DNA of 64,000 bases, from contig CAVQRT010000002.1 of NCBI GenBank assembly GCA_963715195.1, positions 32,001-96,000 on the forward strand. Direction: 5' to 3'. A program made the position numbers and the translations under genes. Positions 2,614-57,169 of this stretch are shown piece after piece. The notes beneath the pieces are model-generated. The model was not told the DNA's origin, did no database searches, and saw only the letters and a list, made by a program, of their open reading frames with translations. Source of the DNA: Thermodesulfovibrionales bacterium. Lineage in GTDB: Bacteria > Nitrospirota > Thermodesulfovibrionia > Thermodesulfovibrionales > SM23-35. Numbering within the stretch: position 1 is the first letter of the stretch; each line of letters starts with the position of its first letter.

Positions 2614-4536
2614 ATGCCTTCAGCAAAAACCCGTATGATTATCGAAGAAGTCATAGATTTCCTCAAAAAAATTCCCCCCTTCCAGTTCTTTGATGAAGCA
2701 AGCCTTAAAAACATTACGAGTGAAATATCTATGGATTTTTATCCGAAAGGAACAACTATCCAGTATCAGGGGGGGCCGGCTTCAGAGTATCTCCATATTA
2801 TCAAGAAAGGAGAAGTAAGGGTCTTCATAAAGAACGAAACTGACGAGGTGTTCGTTGATTACAGGGGAGAAGGTGATTTAATCGGCTATCTCCTTGTATT
2901 CGGTGGTGACAAAGCGAGGGCAACCGTCACTGCCATAGATGATACCATCTGCTATCTGATCAGAAGAGAGACAATACAGAATATTCTGAACGCCAATCCC
3001 AGCGTCAGGGAATTTTTTCATAAATCCTTTCTGACAAGATATCTTGACAGAACATTTAAGGAAATACAGAACAAGAATATAGCCTACGGAGGGGGCGATA
3101 AAATCCTCTTTACCATGCGCGTGGGAGAAATAGGATCGAAGGATGTGATAAAGGCATCAGAAAATATCACCATCCAGGAAGCTGCCGAGATTATGTCTAA
3201 TTACAGCATCAGCTCTCTAATCCTCGTTGATGCCCAGGACTTACCTTCCGGGATTATTACAGACAGAGACCTCAGGGACAAGGTTGTTTCAAAAGGAAGA
3301 GATTGTAACATTCCAGTAAAAGACATCATGAGCGTCCCTCGTGTCCGGGCAGATGTGAAGGATTATTGTTTCGAAGCAATCCTAAAGATGGTAAAACACA
3401 ACGTACATCATCTGCTCATCATGAAGGATGAAAAGTTAAAAGGAATCCTGACGAACCATGACCTTATGATGATTCAAGGCACTTCTCCCTTATCGATTGT
3501 TAGGGATATCGAAAGCCAGAATGTTATAGCCACACTGGTTCCTGTTTCTAAAAAAATTAATGATATGGTCGGGTTATTACTCAGTCAAGGTGCGAAAGCG
3601 AGCAGCATTACCCACATCATCAGTGAAATAAATGACAGACTTATAAGAAAAATACTCATGATAGCGGAAGAGCGCTTTGGAAAACCGCCAGTTCCTTATT
3701 GCTGGGTTGTTTTCGGGAGCGAGGGCCGTAAAGAGCAAACCTTTAAAACAGACCAGGATAACGCGCTCATTTATCATGATCCGACGGATCCTGAAATGGA
3801 AGAAGCGGCAAACAAATATTTCAGGGATTTCACGCTGTTTGCCCGAGATGGTTTGTTGAAATGCGGGTTCCCGTTATGCCCCGCAGATTTCATGGCGACG
3901 AATCCTATGTGGTGTCAACCTCTCCATATCTGGAGGAGTTATTTCACAAACTGGGTCTCTTCTCCGACCTCTGAAGCAGTATTGAACGCTGTCATATTCT
4001 CTGATCTCAGGGCAATCCATGGTGAAACGCGCCTTCTGGAATGGCTCAAAGATCACGCAATCGCCTTGCTCAGCGATAACCAGGTCTTCCTCGGTTATAT
4101 TGCCAACATGGCTATAAGAAATGTGCCCCCAATCGGCTTTCTGAAGACGCTCGTGGTCGAAAAGGGTGGCGAATACAAAGACCGGCTGGATCTCAAAACA
4201 AAGGGAATTGTTCCTTTGATTGACATCATTCGGCTTTTTGCATTAGAAAAAGGCTTCAGGGAGACTTCAACAGTCGAAAGAATCAACGCTCTGAAAGATA
4301 ACCATTCTATCGTCAGAGAATATGCGGATGAGCTTTTACACTCCTTCGAATTTATCATGTTACTAAAAATTCAAACTCAGTTTGAGCAATTGAGAGAAGG
4401 ACAGGATATCAACAATTTCATCCATTCTCATAAACTGAGCAATCTTGAAAAAAGGATAGCGAAAGAAACTTTTCAACTCATAGCTAAAATTCAGGACCTC
4501 ATCATTGAACAATATGATATCAGGCGTAATGACTAA
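2614..4536 (+). CDS. cNMP-binding / CBS-pair / DUF294 putative nucleotidyltransferase (copy 1)
   Basis: N-terminal cNMP fold (PPFQF...IIKKGEVRV), CBS pair (GIITDRDLR, GILTNHDL), NTase motif GSEGRKEQTFKTDQDNAL; start may be ATG 2635. Confidence 0.85.
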   Translation: MPSAKTRMIIEEVIDFLKKIPPFQFFDEASLKNITSEISMDFYPKGTTIQYQGGPASEYLHIIKKGEVRVFIKNETDEVFVDYRGEGDLIGYLLVFGGDKARATVTAIDDTICYLIRRETIQNILNANPSVREFFHKSFLTRYLDRTFKEIQNKNIAYGGGDKILFTMRVGEIGSKDVIKASENITIQEAAEIMSNYSISSLILVDAQDLPSGIITDRDLRDKVVSKGRDCNIPVKDIMSVPRVRADVKDYCFEAILKMVKHNVHHLLIMKDEKLKGILTNHDLMMIQGTSPLSIVRDIESQNVIATLVPVSKKINDMVGLLLSQGAKASSITHIISEINDRLIRKILMIAEERFGKPPVPYCWVVFGSEGRKEQTFKTDQDNALIYHDPTDPEMEEAANKYFRDFTLFARDGLLKCGFPLCPADFMATNPMWCQPLHIWRSYFTNWVSSPTSEAVLNAVIFSDLRAIHGETRLLEWLKDHAIALLSDNQVFLGYIANMAIRNVPPIGFLKTLVVEKGGEYKDRLDLKTKGIVPLIDIIRLFALEKGFRETSTVERINALKDNHSIVREYADELLHSFEFIMLLKIQTQFEQLREGQDINNFIHSHKLSNLEKRIAKETFQLIAKIQDLIIEQYDIRRND

Positions 4537-4623
4537 TTGCATGAGCAGGTTCGGGACCTTTTTTTGATACATTATGTGTATTATTGAAAACAATGATTCA
4601 TCTGAGGAGAGGGCACTAATACC

Positions 4624-6537
4624 TTGGTAGCGGAAGACACCATTAGATTTCTCAGGAAAATACCCCCTTTTCAGTTCCTTGATGACAGTATTCTCCAGCG
4701 TGTAAGCAGGAACGCAAGAAAAACTGTCTATCCAAAGGATACCATTATTCTCCAGCAGGATGGACAGCCAAGTGAATACCTCCGCGTGATCAGGAAAGGC
4801 GGAGTAAAAGTATACAGGACCACTGAAACCGGAGAGGAAATCGTCATTGACTTTCGGGGCGAGGGGGATACATTCGGTTTTCTCTCCCTTATTGGCAAAG
4901 ATAAGGCAAAAGCAAATATTATTGCCACAGAGGATACTGTCTGTTACCTCTTGGATAAAGAAACGGTTAAAAGCCTTATCGAGACAAGTTCGATTTTTAC
5001 TGAATATTTCCTGAAATCTCATCTCGCAAAATACATTGACAAGTCATTCGGTGGAAAAGAGAATAAATCTCTTCTTTTTGGATCCGCTGACAGCATTCTA
5101 TTCAAGACTCGTGTGGATGATATCGGGCTGAAGGACATCATCACAGTAGAGGAGTTCAGGACAATAAAGGAGTCTGCAAAGATTATGTCTCAGAATAAGA
5201 TCAGCTCCCTGATCATCATAAACGGTGAACAACAGCCTTCAGGAATCGTTACCGACAGAGACCTGAGGGAAAAAGTCGTTGCTGCCGGCAGGGATGTGTC
5301 AGAACCGATACGTAATATCATGACCAGTCCACTCATACGGGTTGATACCTCAGATTTCTGTTTCGAGGCGGTCATGAAAATGATCAAAAATAATATCCAC
5401 CATATTGTTGTGATGGAAAAAGGGTTTCTGAAGGGCATCCTCACAAATCACGACATTCATGGTTCTACAGGGCACCTCCCCGTTATCTGTTGTCAGGGAT
5501 ATTGAAGCGCAGAATACCATTGAAGGGCTCATCCCGGAGTCCGGGAATATCAATAAAATTATTGCTCTCCTTTTGAAGGAGGGGGCAAAAGCGAGCAACA
5601 TCACCGGTATCATCACAGAAATCAACGACAGGCTCCTCAAAAAAATTCTCGCAATTTCAGAGAATAAATTCGGACCCCCTCCCGTTCCGTATTGCTGGAT
5701 TGTATTCGGCAGTGAAGGCAGAAAAGAACAGACGTATAGAACAGACCAGGATAATGCCATCATTTACATCTGATCCGGTCACAGAAGACCAAAAAGAAGC
5801 TGCGAGGGAGTACTTTCATAAATTTTCAGAATTCGCCAGGGATGCCTTGTTGCAATGCGGGTTCCCTTTATGTCATGGAAATTACATGGCATCTAATCCA
5901 ACATGGCGACAGCCGCTGAACGTCTGGAAGGACTATTTTTCTCAATGGATATCCACTCCGACACCCGATGCGGTACTCGCTTCCTGCATCCTTTTTGACT
6001 TCAGGCCGGTATATGGGGATTCCTACCCTTGCTGAGCATCTCAGAGAACACCTTCAGACCAAGTTGAAAAATCAGGATATGTTCCTAAAACTCATGGCCC
6101 AGCTTACCATAAATCTACGCCCGCCCATAGGTTTGTTCAAGGGTTTTATTGTGGAAAAAACCGGGAAACACAAAAACAAGCTTAACCTCAAATTCACCTG
6201 TCTTGCTCCTCTCGTCAATATCGTGCGACTTTTCAGTCTCGAAACCTATATCCCTGAGACATCTACACTCGACAGACTCCACGCGTTGAAAGCAATACAC
6301 GCGATTGTTGGGGAATTCGGTGAGGAACTGGAGCATGCTTTTGAGTTTCTTACCATGCTTAAAATCCGTCATCAGCATGAACAGATACAACAGGGACAAG
6401 AACCGGATAACTTCATTAACCCGAAAGCCTTGAGCAATTTCGAACAGAAGGTATTCAAGGAATCCTGTCAGGCAATCTTTAAAATACAGGACATGATCAA
6501 TAAAAAGTATAATCCGGGAACAGGATCGATCTTATAA
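4624..6537 (+). CDS. cNMP-binding / CBS-pair / DUF294 putative nucleotidyltransferase (copy 2), split by three single-base frameshifts
   Basis: ORFs 4624-5505, 5459-5773, 5700-6035 and 5968-6537 are collinear with copy 1; +1 indels near 5456, 5768, 6020; motif GSEGRKEQTYRTDQDNA intact. Confidence 0.8.
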
Positions 6538-36648: not shown

Positions 36649-37149
36649 TTACGCCCATGGAGTACCGCCGTCAACTATGCTGTGCTCTTCCCACATAAAC
36701 CAGTTGCCCGTATCCTTCATAAAATTATAGGTATTTGCAAAGATATCATAGTGCTGCTGCTCTTCCTGAATTAGTCTTTCAAAGAGCTGCTTCTCTTTCT
36801 GATTCCCCGCCTCCGTTTCAACCTGTCTGTAGAATGATATACCCTCCTGTTCCATCTGCATGGCTATCTGGAATGCTTCGAGCTCATCCTGCGTTGCAGC
36901 TACACGATGCATCATCGCATTCTTCATGGATTCGAAGATCGTCTGTACCTTTCTCATTGGGCTGACATCTTCCATCGTTATATCAACCTCTTTAAATATC
37001 TGGGAAAGCATCTTGAGATGCCTCTTTTCATCCTCCGTTACCGACTGAAACATTTTTTTCCCGGCAGGATGGCTTGTCTTCTCCGCAGCCTTCGAATAAA
37101 AATCTATTGCATCCTTCTCCATTTTTATTGCGATTTCTATAGCATTCAT
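36649..37149 (-). CDS. Ferritin-like (rubrerythrin-family) di-iron protein
   Basis: Duplicated AIxME...FY...E..H helices. Confidence 0.8.
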   Translation of the reverse strand: MNAIEIAIKMEKDAIDFYSKAAEKTSHPAGKKMFQSVTEDEKRHLKMLSQIFKEVDITMEDVSPMRKVQTIFESMKNAMMHRVAATQDELEAFQIAMQMEQEGISFYRQVETEAGNQKEKQLFERLIQEEQQHYDIFANTYNFMKDTGNWFMWEEHSIVDGGTPWA

Positions 37150-43285: not shown

Positions 43286-44179
43286 TCAATCTTCCACCCG
43301 TTTCCAACGCCTGTGTATCCAAAGCCATTCCGCGGGATGTTCCCGTATGTATGCCTCGATAAAACTGGAGAACCTCTCTGTATCGGCCTTGAGAGCCTTT
43401 TCCTTGTCATCATCACCGGAGAGTTCAATCTCCGGGTGCAATTTAATTTTATGCCCGTCCTTTTCTCTATGGATAAAAGCCGGGATAACAGATGCGCCGG
43501 TTTTTCGTGCGATGAGGGCCGGCATTTTTGTGGTCCAGGCCCCCCTCCCGAGGAAATCAATCACAAACCCTTCTTCAGAGATAACCGCCTGATCCATGAG
43601 GATACCTATACTGTCGTTATTCTTAAGTCCCTGCATAATAGATTTGAGAGCGTTTTTCTTGTAAATAACGCTGTTGCCATATTTTTTCCTGGTACGTTCA
43701 ACAAACTGATTTATATAAGGATTATTCAAAGGTCTTGCAACAATGGAAATAGGGGAAAACCTTACAGAAGCGGAAAGAGCGAGCAGCTCCCAGTTGCCGC
43801 AGTGCCCGGTTATCAACAGAACCCCTTTCCCCTTTGCCCGTGCTGCTTGCAGATGCTCTATGCCTTCGAAATGAACACCGTCTATAATCTTACGCCCCAA
43901 TCCGAAGTAGATTTTGATGACCTCCGCAAGAGACCTTCCGAGGTTTCTGAAGTTATCCCTGATTGCTGCTTCGACCGGTACCGGGATGGTGAGGGCATGA
44001 ACTGCCACCGTTTTTGCAAGATTCCCGATGGCGATTCTTCGCCTGCTTCCCCACAGATAAAAAAGCAAAAGGCCGAGAACTTCCCCGGCCTTCAATGCCC
44101 ATTTCAACGGCAGGACCGCCAACGGTATGGACAGGAGTATCGAAAGACCTGTCTCAATCAGCCATACCGCTCTTTTCAT
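43286..44179 (-). CDS. lpxL: Lipid A late acyltransferase (LpxL/HtrB family)
   Basis: GHCGNWE, LMDQ, WLWIHRRWK. Confidence 0.82.
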   Translation of the reverse strand: MKRAVWLIETGLSILLSIPLAVLPLKWALKAGEVLGLLLFYLWGSRRRIAIGNLAKTVAVHALTIPVPVEAAIRDNFRNLGRSLAEVIKIYFGLGRKIIDGVHFEGIEHLQAARAKGKGVLLITGHCGNWELLALSASVRFSPISIVARPLNNPYINQFVERTRKKYGNSVIYKKNALKSIMQGLKNNDSIGILMDQAVISEEGFVIDFLGRGAWTTKMPALIARKTGASVIPAFIHREKDGHKIKLHPEIELSGDDDKEKALKADTERFSSFIEAYIREHPAEWLWIHRRWKRVED

Positions 44180-46610
44180 TATCCTTTCGTTTTTCTTTGC
44201 CCTCTTCCTCTTTCTCCCCTTCTTTTTCCTTCTTCTTTTCCATCGACTGGGCGATTTCGGTAAGACGTTTTACGACAAGGTAATTAATTGTGCCTGCCGG
44301 ATAGGTTCCGTCATCAGCGGGTTCCCCGACCTTCATACCCGTGAGGAGCTCAAGCCCTTCGTCAACCTTGCGGATTGGATAAATGAAAAACTTATCTTCC
44401 TTCACGGCATCAACGACATCCTTTTTTAGCATAAGATTTTTGACATTCCGCGCAGGGATGATAACTCCATGACTTCCATCGAGTCCGGTCACCCGGCAGA
44501 GGTCGAAGAAACCTTCGATCTTCTCATTGATTCCACCAACCGGCTGGACATCTCCGTTCTGGTCCATGGACCCGGTGACAGCGATATTCTGCCTTAAGGG
44601 TACTCGTGCAATGCTGCTCAGGAGGGCATAGAGTTCGGCACAGGACGCGCTGTCACCTTCCACCATATCATAGAGCTGCTCGAACGTGATCGATGCAGTC
44701 AGGCTTATCGGTTTATGTACCGCGTATCTGCTGCCAAGATAATTCGAGATAATGAGGATGGCCTTCTCGTGGATCTTGCCGCTCATCTTTGTTTCCCGCT
44801 CGATATTCACAACCCCTGCCTTGCCTGCATATGCACTGGCTGTAATCCTCGACGGTTTCCCGAAGCGGTAATCACCCAAATCAAGCACCGCAAGCCCGTT
44901 GATTTGCCCTGTTTTCTCGCCTGATGTCTCTACAATGAGGGTCCCTTCGAGGATCATTTCCCTCAGCCGTTCCTCGATTCTGTTTGTCCTGAAAATCTTT
45001 TCCTCTACGGCCTTCTGAACATGCTCCCCATCAACAACTGCGTTCCCGGCTTTTGATGCCCAGTAACTGGCCTCCCTCAGGACGTCTGCTATGTCGCTGA
45101 ACCGTGCCGATAATTTATTCTGGTGCTCCGCGAGCCGTGAACTGAGTTCTATCACCTTCGCCGCGCCTGACCTGTCGATGGGCAGAAGATTCTCCTCCTT
45201 GCAAAGGGTAGCAATAAAATAAGCATATTTGCGAACATTCTCTTCGTTTCTGATCATCCTGCTGTCGAAATCCGCCTTCACCTTGAACAGCTCCCGGTAT
45301 TCTTCATCAAGATTGTAGAGGAGATAATAAAGATATGGATTCCCGATGAGTATCACCTTGATATCGAGCGGTATTGCCTCAGGCTTGAGCGTCGTTGTCG
45401 ATATCAGCCGGTACTGTTCCCACACGTCTTCTATCTTCACCTCCCGGTCCCTGATCGCCCGTTTCAGTGAATCGTATGCAAATATGTTGCGCAGAAGATC
45501 AAGCGCATTGATAACAAGATACCCTCCATTTGCCTTATGCAGAGAGCCGGCTTTGATCATCGAAAAATCCGTCAAAGCAAGCCCGTACTGTATTTTATGC
45601 TCTATCCTGCCGAAGAGGTCATAATACGTCGGATTAGTCTCAAAGATACAGGGAGCCCCTTTGCAGTCCTTATTGTTTACGAGAACATTGACGGTATATC
45701 TCGTGAAAGTAGGCTCAGTCTTCTGGAGTTTCATGAACGGTACTTGTTGCGGCTGTTCTTCCTGAACCTTGAAATCATCAAGATGTTCAAGGATGTCTTC
45801 CTTTGCTTCATCAAGGTATAGGGTAATCCTCTCGTGTCCCTTGTACTTGCTCTTCAGTTCATCAACGAGATGCCCGACTGCGGAGAGCGCAGCCTCTTTT
45901 TCAAGCTTTCTTATTATTTCCTTGACCAGTTTGTCTTTTTCACGAACCATGCGGACAACATCATTCAGTTTCTCCTGGAGATGTTTGCCGATCTCATCAA
46001 GCTTATTCCTCGTTTTTTCATCAAGCTGTTCGTATTCTTCCTCTGTCAGCGGCTCCCCGGTCTTTTTCACCGGGACAATGACCAGCCCGCTTACGGTCTT
46101 ACGCACCAGGAAGCCTTTTTCCTGTGCCTCTTCCTCGAGGCCGGTAAAGATTTCCTTTTGCTTCCTTTGGGCGTCTTCGATGATGGTATTCTTCTGCTTT
46201 TCGTATTCTTTTGATTCAAAGGCCTTCGGAATTTCAACCTTCAGGATTTTTACCACCTCTTCCATATCTTTTTGGAATATAACCGCCTGCCCGGGAGGAA
46301 GGGAGATGGCTAAGGGAGCATCGGGATCCTTAAAATTGTAGACATAACACCAGTCCTGAGGCACGGGTTCTTTCATGGCTTTTTGACTGAGGAATGATTT
46401 GACGGTTGTCATCTTGCCAGTGCCGCACTCCCCGAGGATGAAAATATTAAAACCCCTGCTTTCGAGGCTCAGGCCGAAATCAAGGGAATGAAGAGCACGT
46501 TCCTGGCCTATCGTTTCTTTAAAATCCGGCAGATCATTTGTTGTTGCGAAATCAAAGACAGAAGGATCACAAAACCCAGACAGCTCATCATGTCGCAGTT
46601 TTTCCGGCAT
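44154..46610 (-). CDS. Lon-family protease, LonC-type, with long coiled-coil insert
   Basis: IGQERA, Walker A GECGTGK, GSLHKANGGYL, catalytic EGDSAS and GGINEKIEGF; start moved to ATG 46610. Confidence 0.85.
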   Translation of the reverse strand: MPEKLRHDELSGFCDPSVFDFATTNDLPDFKETIGQERALHSLDFGLSLESRGFNIFILGECGTGKMTTVKSFLSQKAMKEPVPQDWCYVYNFKDPDAPLAISLPPGQAVIFQKDMEEVVKILKVEIPKAFESKEYEKQKNTIIEDAQRKQKEIFTGLEEEAQEKGFLVRKTVSGLVIVPVKKTGEPLTEEEYEQLDEKTRNKLDEIGKHLQEKLNDVVRMVREKDKLVKEIIRKLEKEAALSAVGHLVDELKSKYKGHERITLYLDEAKEDILEHLDDFKVQEEQPQQVPFMKLQKTEPTFTRYTVNVLVNNKDCKGAPCIFETNPTYYDLFGRIEHKIQYGLALTDFSMIKAGSLHKANGGYLVINALDLLRNIFAYDSLKRAIRDREVKIEDVWEQYRLISTTTLKPEAIPLDIKVILIGNPYLYYLLYNLDEEYRELFKVKADFDSRMIRNEENVRKYAYFIATLCKEENLLPIDRSGAAKVIELSSRLAEHQNKLSARFSDIADVLREASYWASKAGNAVVDGEHVQKAVEEKIFRTNRIEERLREMILEGTLIVETSGEKTGQINGLAVLDLGDYRFGKPSRITASAYAGKAGVVNIERETKMSGKIHEKAILIISNYLGSRYAVHKPISLTASITFEQLYDMVEGDSASCAELYALLSSIARVPLRQNIAVTGSMDQNGDVQPVGGINEKIEGFFDLCRVTGLDGSHGVIIPARNVKNLMLKKDVVDAVKEDKFFIYPIRKVDEGLELLTGMKVGEPADDGTYPAGTINYLVVKRLTEIAQSMEKKKEKEGEKEEEGKEKRKDNEKSGMAD

Positions 46611-46712
46611 ACGAAACCTCCGAATTGGAATAAACGCAGATAGCACAGTTTACACATTTTACATGCCGGATGCAACATGCCGGCACCCTCTGGGTGAAAA
46701 GATTTCTTTTTC

Positions 46713-47432
46713 CTATTTGCTTCTTTGATGGGTGAGATATGGAAGAAACATATAGCGGATTTCTTCGAGTGATTTTTCTATGACGAACGGCAGCGTTTGA
46801 GCAAAGACATCGAGGATGGTCAGAGAATTAACCGCTACATCCTTGTCGCAGGTACACTGCAGTCGTTTAAACATTGCACCATTGAGAATCTGAATGTTCT
46901 CATAGATTTTTTTCAGTCCCTCGAGGTCAAAGTCGGCTTCCTGTCCTTCTTTCCGGAGGAAATATTGGGCCAGAAGATACATTGAAGAGGCTCTGTATAT
47001 TGTCTCCTCTGCACTCGCGAGGGGCAGGTGGAAGCGGGCCATGGGCTTGAAGAATTCCATATGGGGGCAGCCGCTCGTGGCCATGATCAGGCCCATAACC
47101 GAACTCAGGCTTTTCTGGGCACTCGTCTCTTTCGAGATAGTGCGTTGTGGGGTGATAATGTCAACATGAACCGTTTCATAAGATAACAGGGTCTGAAACA
47201 TCTTCAGGAGTTTTACCAGATGAAGCGCTATCGGACAATTCGGATCACTTCGAACATCCAGGAGACAGTTTGTACACTGACAGAAATCAAGTTTTGCCCA
47301 GAAAGGGATTCTCTTTGGAATATCATTCATGAGGGCAAGGGTTACAGGATCGAGATGCAGGTCGATAATCTCCTGCTGAGCGTCAGGAAGCCTAAAAAGG
47401 TATCGAATGTCTATAGTATCCATGTTATTCAC
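46713..47432 (-). CDS. Conserved hypothetical protein with Cys motifs (resembles DUF6901 family, from memory)
   Basis: WAKL..CQCTNC...CP, GLIMATSGCP, KPMARFHLPLA, SMYLLAQYF. Confidence 0.6.
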   Translation of the reverse strand: MNNMDTIDIRYLFRLPDAQQEIIDLHLDPVTLALMNDIPKRIPFWAKLDFCQCTNCLLDVRSDPNCPIALHLVKLLKMFQTLLSYETVHVDIITPQRTISKETSAQKSLSSVMGLIMATSGCPHMEFFKPMARFHLPLASAEETIYRASSMYLLAQYFLRKEGQEADFDLEGLKKIYENIQILNGAMFKRLQCTCDKDVAVNSLTILDVFAQTLPFVIEKSLEEIRYMFLPYLTHQRSK

Positions 47433-48037: not shown

Positions 48038-51000
48038 TTAAAATGCCAGAGTGAATTTGGCAAATACAGCCCGTTCCGGTTGTATCGACGGGTTCGCAAG
48101 ATCTAGGTCCTGATACTGAAAAGACTGATTGAAAAGGTTTCGCGCATCAATCATGATGATACCCATTCTTTTTGGCAGACGGTAGCTGACTGAAGCATCC
48201 GTTATCCAGAAATTGTCGGTTCCGGATACAATAGCCCCAGCCGGTCTCTGAAGCTTAAATTTCCCTTCCTGGTCAATGTATGTCGTTTTCACTCTTGCAC
48301 TGAATCCCGAAGGATGTGCAAAGGTTATTGCAAACGGGAAACGGTTCGTTCTTACATGGTTCAAAGTATCTCCGGATCGTCTCTATCATTTTCCTTTTTC
48401 TCATACTGATACGCTGCGCTGAGCGCTATCCACTGAGAGGCGTCCAGTAAAGATAGCCCCTGCCAAACCATTCATTCCCCTCAAGATGCTTTACCCCTGT
48501 GCCAGCTTCGGTCGCAATAAAGTCGGGTATTCCAAATCCCTTTGTGAGTACTCTAACCCCCCGTAAATATTCTTCAAAACTTTCTGATCTATGGCAACGC
48601 CGTATCGCCATGCTTCAGTCGCACCGTCGTCGTCGTAGAACTGATTGAACCCGGCCACCTGCGTCGGCTCAAGCGTCTGTTCTGTCGGAAGAGTTCGTCT
48701 GAGCGTTCTGAAGGCAGCTGCCCTGAGCGTGGTTGCCGGTAGGGGGTTCCACATAACGCCGAATTTCGGGTTGAACTGATCGTATCTTCTACCTCACTGT
48801 CAAAGAAATCCGCACTTCCGCCGATGGTCCACTTCACCGTTTTTGGATAATTGATATACGAATATACGTAAAGATTGGTGTGTTCGGCATCAGAATCAAC
48901 AGTGTCGGTCACTTTAACGGGAAAAGGGGGTCCGCCAGGGATAAGAAATTCCAAATCAGTTTTGTCTTTCCTGTTTATGTCGAAATAGCCGATACCGCTC
49001 ACAAGTTTGATGTATTTGGTGCTCAACAGGTGTTGCAGCTCCCCGCTGTAGTCTTCTTCGCCGTCAGTCTGTACACTGAACTTTGTCTGAGTAGGATCGC
49101 CAGGTTCAGGGTTAACATGCAAACTCGCGTCCCAATGTCTGTATATAAAGGAACCAAGGAGTGCAGAACCGGGTGAGAAGGCATGACGGAAACCAAATCT
49201 CATCGTTCGCTCCTCTTCATCCTGTCTGAGCGTCGGGAGATAATTATCCCTGCCGAAAAAAAGCGTGAGATCACCGTGATCAAAATCCCTCGATCTGAAC
49301 TCAGCCTGGACACTGGTCTTCGGAGTGAGCTCTACCTGAGCGAACAGGTTGTAAATGTTCTGCTTCTGATCGTTGTTCTCACGCCATCCGTTACTCTTGT
49401 AAAAGAACTGCCCGGCACTTATGGAGGCCTTACCCTGAACCGCCGCCACAGCAATCTCTTCCCCGAAGGTACTGTTCTCACCAATAATACTGCTTACCTG
49501 CAAGGAATACCTGTTCCGGTTGAAGAGCGGGTTGAATTCGTTGAATGAAAGGTCTGCTGGGCCTGCTCCCTCCAGGATGAACAGGTTACTCTCAGCGAGA
49601 TGGGGTTGCACAGGTGTAATGTTGATTGGCTGAAGCAATTGTGACTGAAGGAGTTCACTTACCCTCGCCATCTCATGTCGCGGCAGTGCTGAATATGAAT
49701 CCGCCAAAAACCTGTGTCCCGAAAAATCTGCCGGGTCACTATTCACCGATTTCCATCCCTCGATGAGGGCAAGATCCTGGAAACCGAGATTGCTATAGAT
49801 GCGTGCAAGGCTCGCGCTCCGTGCTGCAAGGTCTGCATCGAGAAGAAACTTCGAACGATAGACTGCCCTGTTGTCGTTCAGGTCGATCGCCTTCTGCATC
49901 TCCTGCAGTGCCTCCACCGGTCGGTTCTCTGTCTGTTTCTTGATGGCTTCGTAGAAGAACGGCGTCGGGTCTTGCGGATCAAACTCCTTTGCCATCTGAT
50001 ACTGGTCATTCGCCATCTTGTCCTGTTTCTCTTCGTAGTAAGCCTTCCCAAGGTAGCTCCTGAGGAGAGAGTTGTCGGGGTCGAGGCTGACGGCGATCTC
50101 GATGTCCTTCCGTCCTTCCTCAAGGCATCCCTTGCGGATCTTTGCGAGTCCGAGCCCAAGCCTCGGTAGCGGGGCTGCCTGATCCAGCTCGATCGCCTTC
50201 TCGAAGGCTGCCATGGACTCCTTTATCTTCACCTGGGTGAGGTATGCAAATCCCAGGACGGTCTGTGTCCTTGCGATGTTGGGATTCAACTCTACAGCCT
50301 TGTTTGCCGCTCTGAGGGATTCGTCAAGTCTTCCGAACGACTGTTGTATCTCGGCAAGTCTTGCCCACGCCAGGGCATTTTCAGGTTCAACTGTCACCGC
50401 CTCTTTCATGCTGTTGAGAGCTCCCTTCAGGTCAAAGCTCGCCTGTTGGGCATACGACATGGCTATATGAGCTGCTGCTGAATTCTTGTCCGCCTGCACC
50501 GCTTTTCCTGCCAGGTCAAGGGCCTTTTCCTTATCATTCTGTGTCACCGCAATGATTGACTGGAGAGAAAATGCCAGGCTGTTCTGGGGATCGAGCCTCA
50601 GGGCCTGCTCAATCTCTGCCTTTGCCACTTCAACACGGCCTACACGCAGAAGCGATGCTGCACGGTGTGTGTAGAACCGCGGATCGGTATCCTTCAATTC
50701 TTCAGGATATTCCCAGAGAACTGGTGGATAGTAAAGTGCCCATTGCACGGCATCACGCGGTCGCACCACGGTTTGTAAAACCGGAGCCTGATCTGCCTTT
50801 GCGATTGCGGATTGTCCGCTCGTTAACGTCAGGCTGCCTGCCTTGTTCTCGGCAAGTACCTTACCTTCGAATATCGAGAGGAATGTACTGTCATCATCGA
50901 CTCTCGCCAGGAATTCCGTGCCTTCGACTGTTCCGTTTACAAATGGCGTACTCACTTTCAACGTCCGCGGCCAACGGCTGAAGAATTTCACAGCCCCTTT

Positions 51001-51330
51001 GATGAGACCTATGAGCGAAGTCTCCTCTTTTACCCCGTTGAAGACGAGATTGGTGTATTGGTCGATGCGGACTACGGGACCATTGATGAGTTGCACAGCC
51101 GCCCTGCTGTGCTCATTTGCCCTGACAAGATAGCCTGTACAGATGAGATCGCCCTGATGCGCCTGCACCCACTCCGCATCAGCAGATTTCCTTATCTCCA
51201 CGCTACCCTGTACCGATACTACCTTGGCTACCCAATCCTTGCATATCTCTGCGTGGGCTACATGATGCAATTGAAAAATGCATATGACACTAAATACGAT
51301 TATGCTGATCATCCTCTTTTTCATAGCCAT
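48038..51330 (-). CDS. Outer-membrane receptor: signal peptide + FecR domain + TPR repeats + beta-barrel; 3' part broken by several frameshifts
   Basis: FecR (VSVQGSVE...VSTPFVNGTVEGTEF), TPR array, amphipathic strands continuing through ORFs 48491-48754, 48426-48611, 48038-48364; ends AKFTLAF. Confidence 0.75.
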
Positions 51331-51372: not shown

Positions 51373-53628
51373 CTATTTCTCTTCCATGATAACCTCGCCT
51401 TTCCAGTCCTCCGCTGGCGGGTTCTCCCTGAATTTTTCAGATAATCTGATATAGAATTGGGACGGTCCGTCTCCTCCTGACATTGTGTCGACATTGTTAA
51501 ACCTCAGGATGGCTTCGTTCCAGTCCCGTCTCTTGAAGGCATCGAGTGCCTCTTCGAAGAAAGTGCAGACTGCGACCTGTTTGTCGGTGGACTTCTCGTT
51601 CCGGCAGACCAGTTCGAATACCGTGGTCGGATTTCTTTTTCCTTTCAGCAAAAACTTCCCGATCTTTCGTTTCAGAAAATCGTGACTCCCGCTTACGGCT
51701 TCCCAGGTAGCCAGGATACGCGTGCCCAGATATTTGTTCAACCCCTCCACCCTTGTGGCTGTGTTGACGGTATCGCCCAATGGACGGTATTCATAGTGAT
51801 CAAATGCCCCGATGCTGCCCATTGATATTTCGCCCGCATGAAGTCCAATTCGGGTAGGCAGTTTCAAGTCATCAAGGGACTTATTGAAATCCTGGAGCGC
51901 CGTTTCGATATCAAATGCTGCGCTGCAGGCTCCATTGCAGAACTGGAAATCGGTTTGTTCCTGCTTCACCCAGATGGCAAGCATCGAATCTCCCACGACA
52001 TTTGAGATGCTTCCCCCGTGTCTTCTCACGGGATTAAAAATCGCCTGATAATAGGTATTCATGAATTCCTTCAGTTGCTTTGGATGCATTTTTTCTGATA
52101 GATCAGTGTAATGTTCTGCGTCAGTGGACAAACAAATTCCGTACACGAATTTTTCACTCGCCCTGATCTTTTCGATGCCTCTCACGACCTCATTGACTAT
52201 GTCAGCCGGCAGGTAATAGCCAAAGGTCTCCCTGACTTTCTGGTGTTCTTTCTTCGTGTCGAAATACCTCCAGACCGCACTACCGAAAACAGCGAGCGTG
52301 AGCTGAAAAAATACCGGGACAACAAGAGGGAACCAAATACCCCGGCTCTTGAATAGAGAGAACGCAACGAGAAGATATCCGGCACCCATTCCTATAGCTG
52401 CAAATGCGGAAACATTACCAGGCAGATACCTGCACATAAACCCCAGCGTGATGCCAAAGAGCAGTAACAGAATAGCTTGACTGAGAGCAGAAAGCGGTCG
52501 CAAAGGCATATCCTCGAGCAGGTTTGAAAAGGCCGTCGCAGCTATCTCCACCCCGCTGATATCCAGCCCTTCTTCCTGAGAGAAGACCGTATAAAAACTT
52601 TCACTCTGCTCAGTTGGTGACTCCACAGAACGTCCGACGAATACAACCTTTCCAGCCAGGTCAAACCGTCTCTTCTCACCATCACCTTTTTGAGCATTGA
52701 TAAGCTCATAGTACGGGATTGTCTTGATGGTGCGAGGGGGACCGTAAAAGTTCAGATACAGACTGTTCTGACTTTTTTGGTAAAACGAAATAAGTGATTT
52801 GATCATTCTGTACTCTTCCTGACTGTTCAAAAAAGGCCTTACTCTCTCGAGCTCTGTCGTCATCCTTTTTGCGATCTTTGCATCCTCCGAGAAAATCTCC
52901 CGTATCGTGTGCATAACCTCACCGAGTCGCCTGGTGCCGATAACGTCATCCGCACTCTGGGGTAACCGTTGAGCTTCGCGAGGGCTTACCGATCTCAGCA
53001 AGACAACGAACGTTTCGTACACCGGCATGGTAAAAAGCTGAAATGCCACTACGGGCAGGGTTGGTTTATCGCCAGCCGCGGTCTTGAAAGTCCAGTATTG
53101 GTTCAGTTTGACCGGGATCTTCGGTAAGGCAAAAGGTGCTGTTGCCACCGCAGCCCGCGCGAGTTGATCTGTGGGGGCAACCTCTTTGATGACACTGACT
53201 TCTCCCCTTCCGCCTATCAAGGGGATCTCCTTTGCTCTGAGGCACTCGCAGAGAACGACTGTCCGAGCCTTCCTGATCGACTCAGCGAAGGTATGATCCT
53301 CACGTGCCGAGCCCGGTTCCAGGAAGCTCACGTCGAAGACGATAACAGACGCCTGTGCTTTAACTAAATTCTCAACGAGCGCAGCATGAACACTCCGTGG
53401 CCATTTTTCCGGTCTGTCTGAGAGTTTAAGACGTTCTGAGGACCTCTTGTCTATTGCAGCAATGACTACTTCGCCAGGGGCCTTCCGCACTCCTCTGAGC
53501 TTAAACAAAATGTCGAGGCCGATATCTTCTTCGAGAAAGGAACCAACGGGCAGCAGGGTAAGGATAAGCCCGGACAGGGCAACAATGCAACTAAGCACTA
53601 CTGCTTTTGTGAAGCGGGAAATATGCAT
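51373..53628 (-). CDS. CHASE2-domain class III nucleotidyl cyclase
   Basis: WPRS.HA, VFDV.F, SGVEI.A, three TM helices, cyclase TD / GD / RIGLH.G / GDTVNTATRVE; start moved to ATG 53628. Confidence 0.88.
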   Translation of the reverse strand: MHISRFTKAVVLSCIVALSGLILTLLPVGSFLEEDIGLDILFKLRGVRKAPGEVVIAAIDKRSSERLKLSDRPEKWPRSVHAALVENLVKAQASVIVFDVSFLEPGSAREDHTFAESIRKARTVVLCECLRAKEIPLIGGRGEVSVIKEVAPTDQLARAAVATAPFALPKIPVKLNQYWTFKTAAGDKPTLPVVAFQLFTMPVYETFVVLLRSVSPREAQRLPQSADDVIGTRRLGEVMHTIREIFSEDAKIAKRMTTELERVRPFLNSQEEYRMIKSLISFYQKSQNSLYLNFYGPPRTIKTIPYYELINAQKGDGEKRRFDLAGKVVFVGRSVESPTEQSESFYTVFSQEEGLDISGVEIAATAFSNLLEDMPLRPLSALSQAILLLLFGITLGFMCRYLPGNVSAFAAIGMGAGYLLVAFSLFKSRGIWFPLVVPVFFQLTLAVFGSAVWRYFDTKKEHQKVRETFGYYLPADIVNEVVRGIEKIRASEKFVYGICLSTDAEHYTDLSEKMHPKQLKEFMNTYYQAIFNPVRRHGGSISNVVGDSMLAIWVKQEQTDFQFCNGACSAAFDIETALQDFNKSLDDLKLPTRIGLHAGEISMGSIGAFDHYEYRPLGDTVNTATRVEGLNKYLGTRILATWEAVSGSHDFLKRKIGKFLLKGKRNPTTVFELVCRNEKSTDKQVAVCTFFEEALDAFKRRDWNEAILRFNNVDTMSGGDGPSQFYIRLSEKFRENPPAEDWKGEVIMEEK

Positions 53629-53846
53629 CCCCCCCCAAGACTGCTTCTTGCAACCTAAACCGATTGCCACCGAAAGAATGTGAGCGTTTCAGGAAACTTT
53701 ACTGATTTTGATAAAACACAACAACGGACAATCAGTTCGCACGAAAAGCCTATACAAAACCCCTTTGAATTGATGTAACCATAAGCATTGAAAATTGTCA
53801 ATTCTAATTAATTAACAAAGAAATATAAAAAAGGGAAACGGTGTTA

Positions 53847-55708: not shown

Positions 55709-57169
55709 CTACTCATGATGGAGAATGCCTTTTTCGTAGAGAATTGCTATCAATATTTCAACAATTTCCGGATCAAACTGTATGCCGGAGAAGTCCCTCA
55801 ATTCCTTAACCACTTTGTCCATAGGGAGTGCTTTTCTGTATGGCCTGTTGGTTGTCATTGCGTCAAATGCATCTGCGACAGCGATAATTCTTGCACCGAG
55901 CGGGATGGCCTCTCCTTTCAGACCATCCGGATATCCTGAACCGTCATAGTATTCATGATGATGTCGTATGATGTCCCGGGCATCTTTCATCGGCTCAATA
56001 GACTCGATCATCTTTGCACCATGTGCCGGATGCTTCCTGATGATCTCCATCTCTTCCTCTGAAAGTCTTCCCGGCTTCTTCAGAATATTGTCGGGGACCG
56101 TAACCTTTCCGAGGTCGTGAAGGAGTGCAGCCATCCGGATATTTTCGACATCGGCCGCAGGAAGTCCGAGCTTCTGCGCAATATCAACAGAATATTCCGC
56201 GATATCCTTCATGTGCTTGTCGGTATAGAAGTCCTTCGATTCCGCGATTCCCGACAGGGTAACGATTGTGGACAGATACGAGTGTTCCAGTTTCTCATAG
56301 AGCCTGGCGTTCTCTATGGCGGCTGCAGCCTGCCCGCTGAGAACCGAAACCAGCTCGACATCCGGGAGAGAGAATGGGTGTTCTGTGCCAGGCCCGCTCA
56401 GGAAAAGCATGCCGATGACCTTTCCCCGAACGGTGAGGGGCATGTAAATACTGGATAACTCTCCCGTCCCCGGCATTTCCTCAAAGCCTTCGGGAATCGG
56501 CAAGCCCGGAACGATGAGGACAGGTTTCTTTTCTATTGTGAGCAGAGAGGCTAATTTTTCAAGATGTTTCTTCCTAAACTCAGCACCATGGGCAGGTAAA
56601 AATCCGTAATCCGCCTCCAGAACAATCTTTCCTGTTTGCTCATCGGTTAAAAAGAGGCACGCCCTGTCTGCCCGTGTTTCCCTCACCGCAATCTCGACAA
56701 TAAGGGTAAGGAGCTTCTTTGTGTCTGTTTCACTGATAATCTCCTTGCTCACCTCAAAAAGCGGCATCAGGGCCCGCATCCGGATATTGTCGCTGAGCAG
56801 CCGCGTCTTTTCCAGTGCATCCGCAACTGAGCTTCTGAGGTCTGTTGTTGTGAACGGTTTTAAAAGGAACCCCTGGGCACCCAGTTTGAGAGCTTTTATG
56901 GCAACATCGAGCGTGCCGTGGCCTGTGATGATAATGATGGGCATTTCCTTGTTGTGGTTACGGACCTGCTGAATAACTTCCAGCCCGCTTATATCAGGCA
57001 TTCGTATATCTGTCAACAAAAGAGAAAATGTTTCTTCCGAAAGCAATCGGATGCCCTCATGCCCATCCGAGCTGATTGTGACATCATAGCCGACATTGGT
57101 CAGTATTTCCCGTGCAATGTCCAGAATCAGCTCTTCATCATCAATAACCAGTATTTTGTCTTTTTCCAT
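55709..57169 (-). CDS. REC-GAF-HD-GYP cyclic dinucleotide phosphodiesterase
   Basis: N-terminal receiver, GAF (AAIENARLY), HDLGK, HHEYYDGSGYP. Confidence 0.9.
   Translation of the reverse strand: MEKDKILVIDDEELILDIAREILTNVGYDVTISSDGHEGIRLLSEETFSLLLTDIRMPDISGLEVIQQVRNHNKEMPIIIITGHGTLDVAIKALKLGAQGFLLKPFTTTDLRSSVADALEKTRLLSDNIRMRALMPLFEVSKEIISETDTKKLLTLIVEIAVRETRADRACLFLTDEQTGKIVLEADYGFLPAHGAEFRKKHLEKLASLLTIEKKPVLIVPGLPIPEGFEEMPGTGELSSIYMPLTVRGKVIGMLFLSGPGTEHPFSLPDVELVSVLSGQAAAAIENARLYEKLEHSYLSTIVTLSGIAESKDFYTDKHMKDIAEYSVDIAQKLGLPAADVENIRMAALLHDLGKVTVPDNILKKPGRLSEEEMEIIRKHPAHGAKMIESIEPMKDARDIIRHHHEYYDGSGYPDGLKGEAIPLGARIIAVADAFDAMTTNRPYRKALPMDKVVKELRDFSGIQFDPEIVEILIAILYEKGILHHE

Follow-up and report, generated by a model that had tools for sequence, protein, structure and literature searches.

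What does a nucleotide cyclase make when both of the residues that usually choose its base have been replaced? The question is raised by a gene in a 64,000-nucleotide stretch (hereafter the window) of contig CAVQRT010000002.1 from a Thermodesulfovibrionales bacterium (GCA_963715195.1), which encodes a CHASE2 sensor domain joined to a class III cyclase domain (Table 1). The best explanation of its sequence is that the product is an active, receptor-type class III nucleotide cyclase of a CHASE2 clade without a name. We predict, with a probability of about 40%, that the main product is cyclic guanosine monophosphate (cGMP) or a mixed output that prefers guanine. Cyclic adenosine monophosphate (cAMP) ranks slightly below cGMP, and cyclic pyrimidines come third, the least likely of the three.

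The catalytic machinery is complete. The translation of 51373-53670(-) contains all of the motifs quoted in the preliminary description, and both metal-binding aspartates (D517 and D561) and the transition-state asparagine and arginine (N636 and R640) are kept in a whole open reading frame (ORF). The region 51700-52150, to which that description referred, corresponds to residues 507-657 and is the catalytic core. The CHASE2 domain (102.8 bits, E 2.9e-29) lies between membrane helices, N-terminal to a cyclase domain that matches PF00211 at 44.1 bits (cut-off 21.9), and hydrophobic stretches occur at about residues 22-41 and 397-470 of the translation. Together with the intact catalytic residues, this arrangement bears out the earlier assignment as a membrane-bound sensor cyclase. 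The catalytic domain matches the PDB sequences of a Cya2 chimera, bPAC, OaPAC and CyaB. An AF2 model of residues 465-765, built from an alignment of 61 sequences, has a pLDDT of 89 and a pTM of 0.84, and its top Foldseek matches are all class III cyclases (OaPAC, bPAC, CyaB, CyaC and Cya2, with E down to 4e-15).

Class III cyclases follow a textbook rule in which Lys with Asp or Thr selects ATP and Glu with Cys or Ser selects GTP, and Lys is the near-universal adenine selector at the first of these positions (site 1). In adenylate cyclases, this Lys donates a hydrogen bond to adenine N1 while the Asp or Thr at the second position (site 2) accepts one from N6-H2; guanylate cyclases instead use the Glu as an acceptor for N1-H/N2-H2, with less conservation at the second residue (PMC7384201). 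In HMMER and BLAST alignments without gaps, the two sites of the window cyclase fall at N557 and R629. N557 aligns with E/K488 of Synechocystis Cya2 (IDEFMGD in 2w01 and IDKFMGD in the E488K chimera 6fht), with the Lys of bPAC and with the Lys of S. meliloti CyaK (IDKYIGD), and R629 aligns with Gly of Cya2, Thr of bPAC and Ser of CyaK. By alignment to these three proteins both positions are non-canonical, as the preliminary description had stated. The pair falls outside the residues that define the adenylate cyclase subtype (Lys at site 1 with Asp or Thr/Ser at site 2) and those that define the guanylate cyclase subtype (Glu with Cys/Ser/Thr/Gly/Ala), and the family's likeness to the latter is limited to the chemistry of site 1. 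R629, N636 and R640 all lie within the motif YEYRPLGDTVNTATR. A shift of the canonical Arg by four residues (a swap between H625 and R629) was considered and found no support in a cross-tabulation. Contigs from two other metagenome runs span both codons (X8 over 51471-52167 and X6 over 51752-52019), each with one difference from the window, at 51850.

We followed the pair through three sets of relatives: the best 120 of 1297 homologues (49-99% identity), the best 150 cluster representatives at 50% identity or less, and 80 genome loci out of at least 576 confirmed species genomes. Among the 120 homologues, site 1 is N in 68, D in 47, G in three, T in one and H in one, and site 2 is R in 105, T in 12, H in two and G in one. 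The pairs of the 150 representatives are D-R (94), N-R (16), D-T (10), Q-R (5), D-A (4), N-A (4), K-D (1) and others (16); Lys occurs at site 1 once and Glu twice, while site 2 carries Arg in 117 and T, A or G in 25. In the 80 loci the pairs are D-R (52), N-R (15), Q-R (6), D-T (5), G-R (1) and D-G (1), which by site gives D 58, N 15, Q 6 and G 1 at site 1, with Lys in none, and R 74, T 5 and G 1 at site 2. The catalytic residues are retained throughout: D517, D561 and R640 in 120/120 and N636 in 117/120 homologues; D517 in 148/150 representatives (two gaps), D561 in all, N636 in 148/150 and R640 in 149/150; and each of the four in 80/80 loci. Because the residue pair is conserved across these sets, it is more than a chance substitution. 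A lack of conservation in close homologues had been named beforehand as one outcome that would overturn the earlier proposal, and the pair is conserved. The "Asn/Arg" wording of that proposal needs amendment: the Arg is clade-wide, the Asn is local, and the clade pattern is Asp > Asn > Gln together with Arg.

An exhaustive search gave 53,681 protein matches at E <=0.001, of which 1617 reached E <=1e-30. Clustered at 50% identity, the clade has no fewer than 1617 clusters, and it occurs in at least 576 species genomes, among them Thermodesulfobacteriota, Nitrospirota, many Gammaproteobacteria (Nitrosomonas, Chromatiaceae and Acidiferrobacterales), Brocadia and others. Its cultured hosts include Desulfosarcina alkanivorans, D. 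variabilis and Nitrosomonas supralitoralis. In a quick maximum-likelihood tree of 81 family rows and two canonical K-S/T CHASE2 cyclases, with a midpoint root only, a branch with 99% support separates the family from the two canonical cyclases. Every gammaproteobacterial row is D-R, N-R and Q-R emerge inside one Desulfobacterota/Nitrospirota subclade, and D-T forms one small clade. Asp-Arg is probably the older state of the pair, and the window's Asn, as placed by these data, is a local variant of the clade-wide Asp.

Canonical K-T cyclases are also encoded in the organism's own genome and in genome G004, so we treat the clade as a separate paralogue. In genomes G003 and G005, the clade member is the sole PF00211 cyclase, and cyclic mononucleotide (cNMP)-binding proteins are present. 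The own genome also encodes a short soluble class III cyclase (locus L127, G000:C3:135594-136145) with Glu at site 1 (LDEFAGD) and Thr at site 2. Its core is almost identical to that of a Lys-Thr paralogue on another contig (L126, on C4) and to a split copy on a third (L128, on C5), and these paralogues diverge at the specificity residue.

Across the family, a hydrogen-bond acceptor or amide (Asp > Asn > Gln) stands in for Lys at site 1 and a donor (Arg) for Asp/Thr at site 2. As read from the alignments, this acceptor/donor pair is the reverse of what adenine needs and would match a keto base, guanine or uracil. Cya2 offers a precedent, since the wild-type enzyme with Glu is a guanylate cyclase and its E488K variant an adenylate cyclase, each specific (PMC5995499). 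The hydrogen-bond logic and this precedent are the reasons for ranking cGMP above cAMP. The minority pairs of the family (D-T, D-A, D-G, N-A and E-R) all have an acid or amide at site 1 and, except for E-R, a small residue at site 2, and mostly seem to resemble guanylate cyclase pairs. Cya2 (PDB 2W01; E488K chimera 6FHT) is also the best single-sequence PDB match (6fht 2.8e-14, 2w01 2.2e-12) and is CHASE2-regulated in nature (PMC5995499). Like the clade, it has a site 1 other than Lys, a site 2 other than Asp/Thr and a C-terminal extension; unlike the clade, which has Asp/Asn/Gln with Arg, it has Glu with Gly, and identity is low.

The same residues could be read differently. If adenine is still accepted, with Asp or Asn taking a hydrogen bond from N6-H2 and Arg reaching N1 or N7, or if the pair carries little weight, the enzyme would be an ordinary adenylate cyclase in a plain cAMP pathway of the NsrA-CyaK-Clr type, a reading that we rate slightly below the cGMP one. 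This reading would fit genomes G003 and G005, where no PF00211 cyclase other than the clade member accompanies the cNMP-binding proteins. It sits poorly with the exclusion of Lys from site 1 (0/80 loci and 1/150 representatives), with a charge pattern inverted relative to Lys/Asp, and with the finding that Lys at site 1 confers ATP specificity in Cya2 (PMC5995499). The canonical K-T cyclases kept alongside would also be redundant if they made the same product, although different inputs could explain their retention. The earlier proposal of a non-cAMP messenger is plausible on these grounds, with two qualifications: guanine fits the pair at least as well as a pyrimidine does, and cAMP keeps a substantial share of the probability.

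The genes around the cyclase carry further evidence. Directly downstream is a gene for a FecR-TPR-beta-barrel protein (the partner), which BLAST found in 63/80 loci, many of the remaining loci ending at contig edges. Wherever the flank permits, it directly follows the cyclase, and intact orthologues are 1085-1221 amino acids long. When the ORFs of the 80 loci were clustered, nothing was widespread apart from the cyclase, the partner and the shadow ORFs antisense to both. Judged by gene order, the cyclase and its partner are a conserved two-gene unit.

A counterpart exists on S. meliloti pSymB, where a 1190-amino-acid FecR-domain gene lies just upstream of cyaK. An intact relative of the partner aligns with its product over FecR, TPR and barrel (BLASTP 3e-19 and further segments). 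The gene immediately upstream of cyaK is reportedly nsrA. The length of 1190 residues agrees with the size of NsrA in PMC7529298, in which the barrel is assigned to residues 600-1200, and CyaK depends on NsrA, an outer-membrane receptor, to perceive its signal (PMC7529298, PMC13001267). The clade resembles the S. meliloti system of NsrA, CyaK/CyaD1/CyaD2 and Clr in placing a CHASE2 inner-membrane cyclase beside a FecR/TPR/beta-barrel outer-membrane protein of about 1100-1200 amino acids, and in having a CRP-type receptor linked to it in many relatives. It differs in that CyaK, 26% identical to the window cyclase, keeps the canonical Lys along with Ser, and in gene order, the partner being upstream of cyaK in S. 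meliloti and downstream of the cyclase in the clade.

This kinship speaks for cAMP. All of the assayed members of this module type, S. meliloti CyaK and CyaD1/D2, make cAMP (PMC13001267, PMC7529298), and Campylobacterota clusters of CHASE2 cyclase, FecR and TPR genes have been handled as cAMP systems (PMC9239204). The Campylobacterota clusters, which we compared by description only, are like the clade in grouping a CHASE2 cyclase with a FecR outer-membrane protein and TPR parts; they are unlike it in keeping FecR and TPR as separate genes and in including a phosphodiesterase. Their authors attribute the spread of the cluster to horizontal transfer, and the paper assumes cAMP and is silent on pocket residues (PMC9239204). 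XC_0250 and the R. centenum cyclase are without the transition-state Asn/Arg (PMC3770947) and hence of a different kind. The conserved feature is a variant of the NsrA-type CHASE2 receptor cyclase for which we found no printed description; a literature search that left subscription journals mostly outside its reach found no paper tied to the Asp/Asn/Gln + Arg pair.

Receptor genes give information on the class of product. Genes for CRP-like proteins (a cNMP-binding domain and a Crp HTH) adjoin the module in 20/80 loci, 67 of the loci having more than 800 base pairs (bp) of upstream flank. In 15 loci they are upstream of the cyclase at a distance of no more than 360 bp (14 of them divergent), in one they come just after the cyclase, and in four they follow the partner within 800 bp. 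Numbered through alignment to E. coli CRP, the ribose-phosphate contacts of these proteins are kept (G71 in 22/22, E72 in 21/22 and R82 in 22/22, with S83 represented by S in 20, T in one and C in one), and their C-helix pair is Leu/Ala-Thr. In other loci, genes combining a cyclic nucleotide-binding (CNB) domain with BTAD, HD-GYP or a histidine kinase, or bare CNB genes, adjoin the module. Because CRP-like or other cNMP-binding genes adjoin the module in many relatives, the association argues that ordinary cNMP-binding domains sense the product of the family and that this product is a 3',5'-cyclic mononucleotide. It carries no information on the base.

We gave up deducing the ligand from two signatures of the receptors, the RS or RT motif and the C-helix residues, since Rv3676 has RT and SYCRP1 has Leu-Asn although both bind cAMP (PMC10187061). 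Both signatures vary among proven cAMP binders and do not discriminate, and Clr (RS, Thr-Thr) takes both cAMP and cGMP (PMC10187061, PMC10127613). An association of Leu at the T127 position with cGMP, suggested by E. coli CRP T127L, was not confirmed by the two papers found and was not used. As a separate observation, proteins of 432-445 amino acids that join a cNMP-binding domain to a BTAD/TPR transcriptional-activator domain, an unusual effector architecture, are encoded next to the cyclase or the partner in L071, L069, L017 and L035 (L069 assigned by similarity only).

Uracil shows the same donor/acceptor pattern as guanine, and a site 2 Arg extends deeper into the pocket than Asp, Thr or Cys, which could offset a smaller base. 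A pocket that selects UTP or CTP, and with it a housekeeping role for cyclic uridine or cytidine monophosphate (cUMP or cCMP) in signalling unrelated to phage defence, is nevertheless improbable in our estimate. Longer odds still attach to the specific version in which the clade would make a cyclic pyrimidine, most plausibly cUMP because the uracil keto edge matches the acceptor/donor pair, and would thereby link an outer-membrane receptor to CRP-type or other cNMP regulators. The family profile scores 97 bits against bPAC, 94 bits against the Cya2 chimera and 80 bits against Cya2, versus 19.2 bits (E 0.006) against 7R65, which we take to be a PycC of the Pycsar phage-defence systems. PADLOC PycC models match the cyclase at 58.6 bits and below, with no cut-off, a size typical of any class III cyclase (Pfam's own model gives 44 bits).

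PycC enzymes share with the clade the class III fold, the metal Asp residues and polar or charged residues replacing Lys near metal Asp 2, and they place Asp, Arg and Gln near the Lys site (PMC11224242). They are unlike it in being small and sensorless, in sharing defence loci with a CNB-TM or CNB-TIR effector, and in having their determinants elsewhere. These are F100, R142 and Q144 in EaPycC (metal Asp D102/D146) and Y50, D94 and R97 in BcPycC, at -2 from metal Asp 1 and -4/-2 from metal Asp 2; none lies at the beta-5 site, which bears the Arg in the clade (PMC11224242). The -2 aromatic of PycC is variable in the family (A 30, C 14, Y 13, F 12 and S 7 of 80), and no CNB-TM or CNB-TIR gene is adjacent to the window cyclase. 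In addition, 20/22 CRP-like neighbours have Thr, not Asn, where PycTIR uses Asn for uracil (PMC11224242), a weak point since Asn also occurs in cAMP binders (PMC10187061). By these comparisons (no effector, a large sensor and a weak match to 7R65) the cyclase is not Pycsar-like, and the residue pair is the one positive support for the pyrimidine idea. The specific analogy with PycC drawn earlier finds no support here; the placement of the gene outside phage defence does.

Under the favoured cGMP reading, the pathway would run as follows. By homology, the periplasmic CHASE2 domain would receive a signal from the envelope or cell surface through the FecR-TPR-beta-barrel outer-membrane protein. 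The cytoplasmic domains would then dimerise like those of all class III cyclases; in each active site, D517 and D561 would hold two metals and N636 and R640 would serve the transition state. The resulting 3',5'-cyclic mononucleotide would be read by CRP-like and other proteins with cNMP-binding domains.

Several considerations weigh against cGMP. The product is predicted from two residues, and site 2 is not absolutely fixed, being Arg in 117 of the 150 representatives. Compared with the Glu of known guanylate cyclases, the Asp of the clade lacks one methylene, and to our knowledge no enzyme with Arg at site 2 has been characterised. The assayed non-canonical pairs of the mycobacterial cyclases Rv1900c (Asn-Asp) and Rv0386 (Gln-Asn) belong mainly to adenylate cyclases, which also counts in favour of cAMP here; these active enzymes share Asn or Gln at site 1 with members of the clade but differ in retaining Asp or Asn at site 2, in their domain architecture and in being individual genes confined to particular lineages, not a broad clade. 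cGMP signalling is considered rare in bacteria, yet the clade occurs in at least 576 species genomes. The module type as a whole is a cAMP system wherever it has been studied. Within the window, no cNMP receptor gene is adjacent to the cyclase; the closest CRP-like homologue in the own genome, which has 16 cNMP-binding matches, is on another contig and 34% identical. The CRP-like neighbours in relatives have RS in 20/22 and Thr at the S128 position in 20/22, signatures shared by cAMP binders and by the dual cAMP/cGMP receptor Clr, and SYCRP1, which binds cAMP, shares the Leu at their first C-helix position (PMC10187061). The window's partner is itself broken in its barrel part (48038-48790), with a frame change near 48715-48780 seen by tblastn and stops within 48365-48490 of the translation.

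These breaks raise the prospect that this organism carries a decaying or inactive copy, which, together with the chance of some other kind of product, we consider the least probable of the alternatives. The contamination of the genome bin (6.6%) and changes such as G560 to A that occur among homologues would be compatible with decay. However, no break interrupts the cyclase ORF, which retains its four catalytic residues, homologues 76-99% identical to it are undamaged, and single-base indels in contigs of three other runs (at 48361, 48371, 48436 and 48779) sit exactly at the partner breaks. Because those contigs carry indels at the break points, the breaks point to assembly errors or a strain difference, not to a dead gene. 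Against another kind of product stands the association with cNMP-binding receptors, which argues for a cyclic mononucleotide. A complex prediction of CHASE2 (residues 44-392) with the FecR part of the partner (28-210) scored 0.00 and bears on neither side.

Table 1. Coordinates of the cyclase, its domains and functional residues, and the partner gene, as positions in the window.
Feature	Position	Strand	Basis
CHASE2 / class III cyclase ORF	51373..53670	(-)	765 amino acids in ORF list
CHASE2 periplasmic sensor domain, residues 36-408, membrane helices either side	52447..53565	(-)	Pfam PF05226
Class III cyclase catalytic domain, residues 516-685	51616..52125	(-)	Pfam PF00211 Guanylate_cyc
D517, metal-binding Asp 1 (LSTDAEHYT)	52120..52122	(-)	Translation
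N557, site 1, adenine-selecting Lys position (Glu in guanylate cyclases)	52000..52002	(-)	Alignments
D561, metal-binding Asp 2 (SISNVVGDS)	51988..51990	(-)	Translation
R629, site 2, Asp/Thr (adenylate) or Cys/Ser/Gly (guanylate) position	51784..51786	(-)	Alignments
N636 to R640 (VNTATR), transition-state Asn and Arg	51751..51765	(-)	Translation
C-terminal extension, about 75 amino acids, three helices, DGPS..FY motif and conserved Trp	51376..51603	(-)	AF2, alignment
Partner: signal peptide, FecR domain, TPR repeats, C-terminal beta-barrel (NsrA-like)	48038..51330	(-)	Pfam FecR, TPR

The start of the cyclase in the ORF list is probably too early. M15 (codon 53626-53628), which gives 751 amino acids, is the better candidate because homologues are about that long (748-753) and one base immediately before M15, at 53629, is missing from contigs of two other metagenome runs. 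The helices of the C-terminal extension correspond to residues 232-285 of the AF2 model (pLDDT 94-98), and D734, Y740 and W756 are invariant in alignment A1. In Cya2, the native C-terminal extension is required for activity (PMC5995499). An NCBIfam scan of the cyclase returned no matching family.

The cyclase's neighbours in the window encode the FecR-TPR protein, an XerD-like recombinase, a methyltransferase, a REC-GAF-HD-GYP protein, a DUF6901 protein and LonC. The REC-GAF-HD-GYP gene (55709-57169, (-)) lies 2 kb upstream of the cyclase, past the recombinase and methyltransferase genes, and in locus L037 a CNB-HD-GYP gene directly follows the cyclase. From these two cases, a link between the cyclic mononucleotide and cyclic di-GMP turnover may recur. 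Downstream of the module is the gene for a LonC-like AAA protease of 830 amino acids (44154-47432, (-)), preceded by that of the DUF6901 protein (263 bits); the protease accompanies the cyclase in 1/80 loci and is not conserved. Two cNMP-binding-domain genes (frames of 653 and 299 amino acids; G000:C2:34737-34997 and 36726-36986) occur at about 2650-5200 (+) of the window, about 47 kb from the cyclase. Elsewhere, GAF-sigma54 activators are encoded immediately upstream of the cyclase in 9/80 loci (e.g., L005:2475-4094 and L021:13983-15239) and GAF-histidine kinases near it in 7/80.

Beyond the textbook ATP and GTP pairs, a large clade that reaches cultured Desulfosarcina and Nitrosomonas, and supplies the sole class III cyclase of some genomes, has a third one (Asp/Asn/Gln + Arg) as its fixed state. 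Each of the three outcomes would be informative. If the product is cGMP, bacterial cGMP signalling would be far commoner than thought, and the annotation "adenylate cyclase" would be wrong across the whole clade. If it is a pyrimidine, it would have a new signalling role, with pyrimidine cNMPs acting outside phage defence in hundreds of free-living species. Should it be cAMP, specificity could no longer be read from sequence by the textbook rule in a large group of cyclases.

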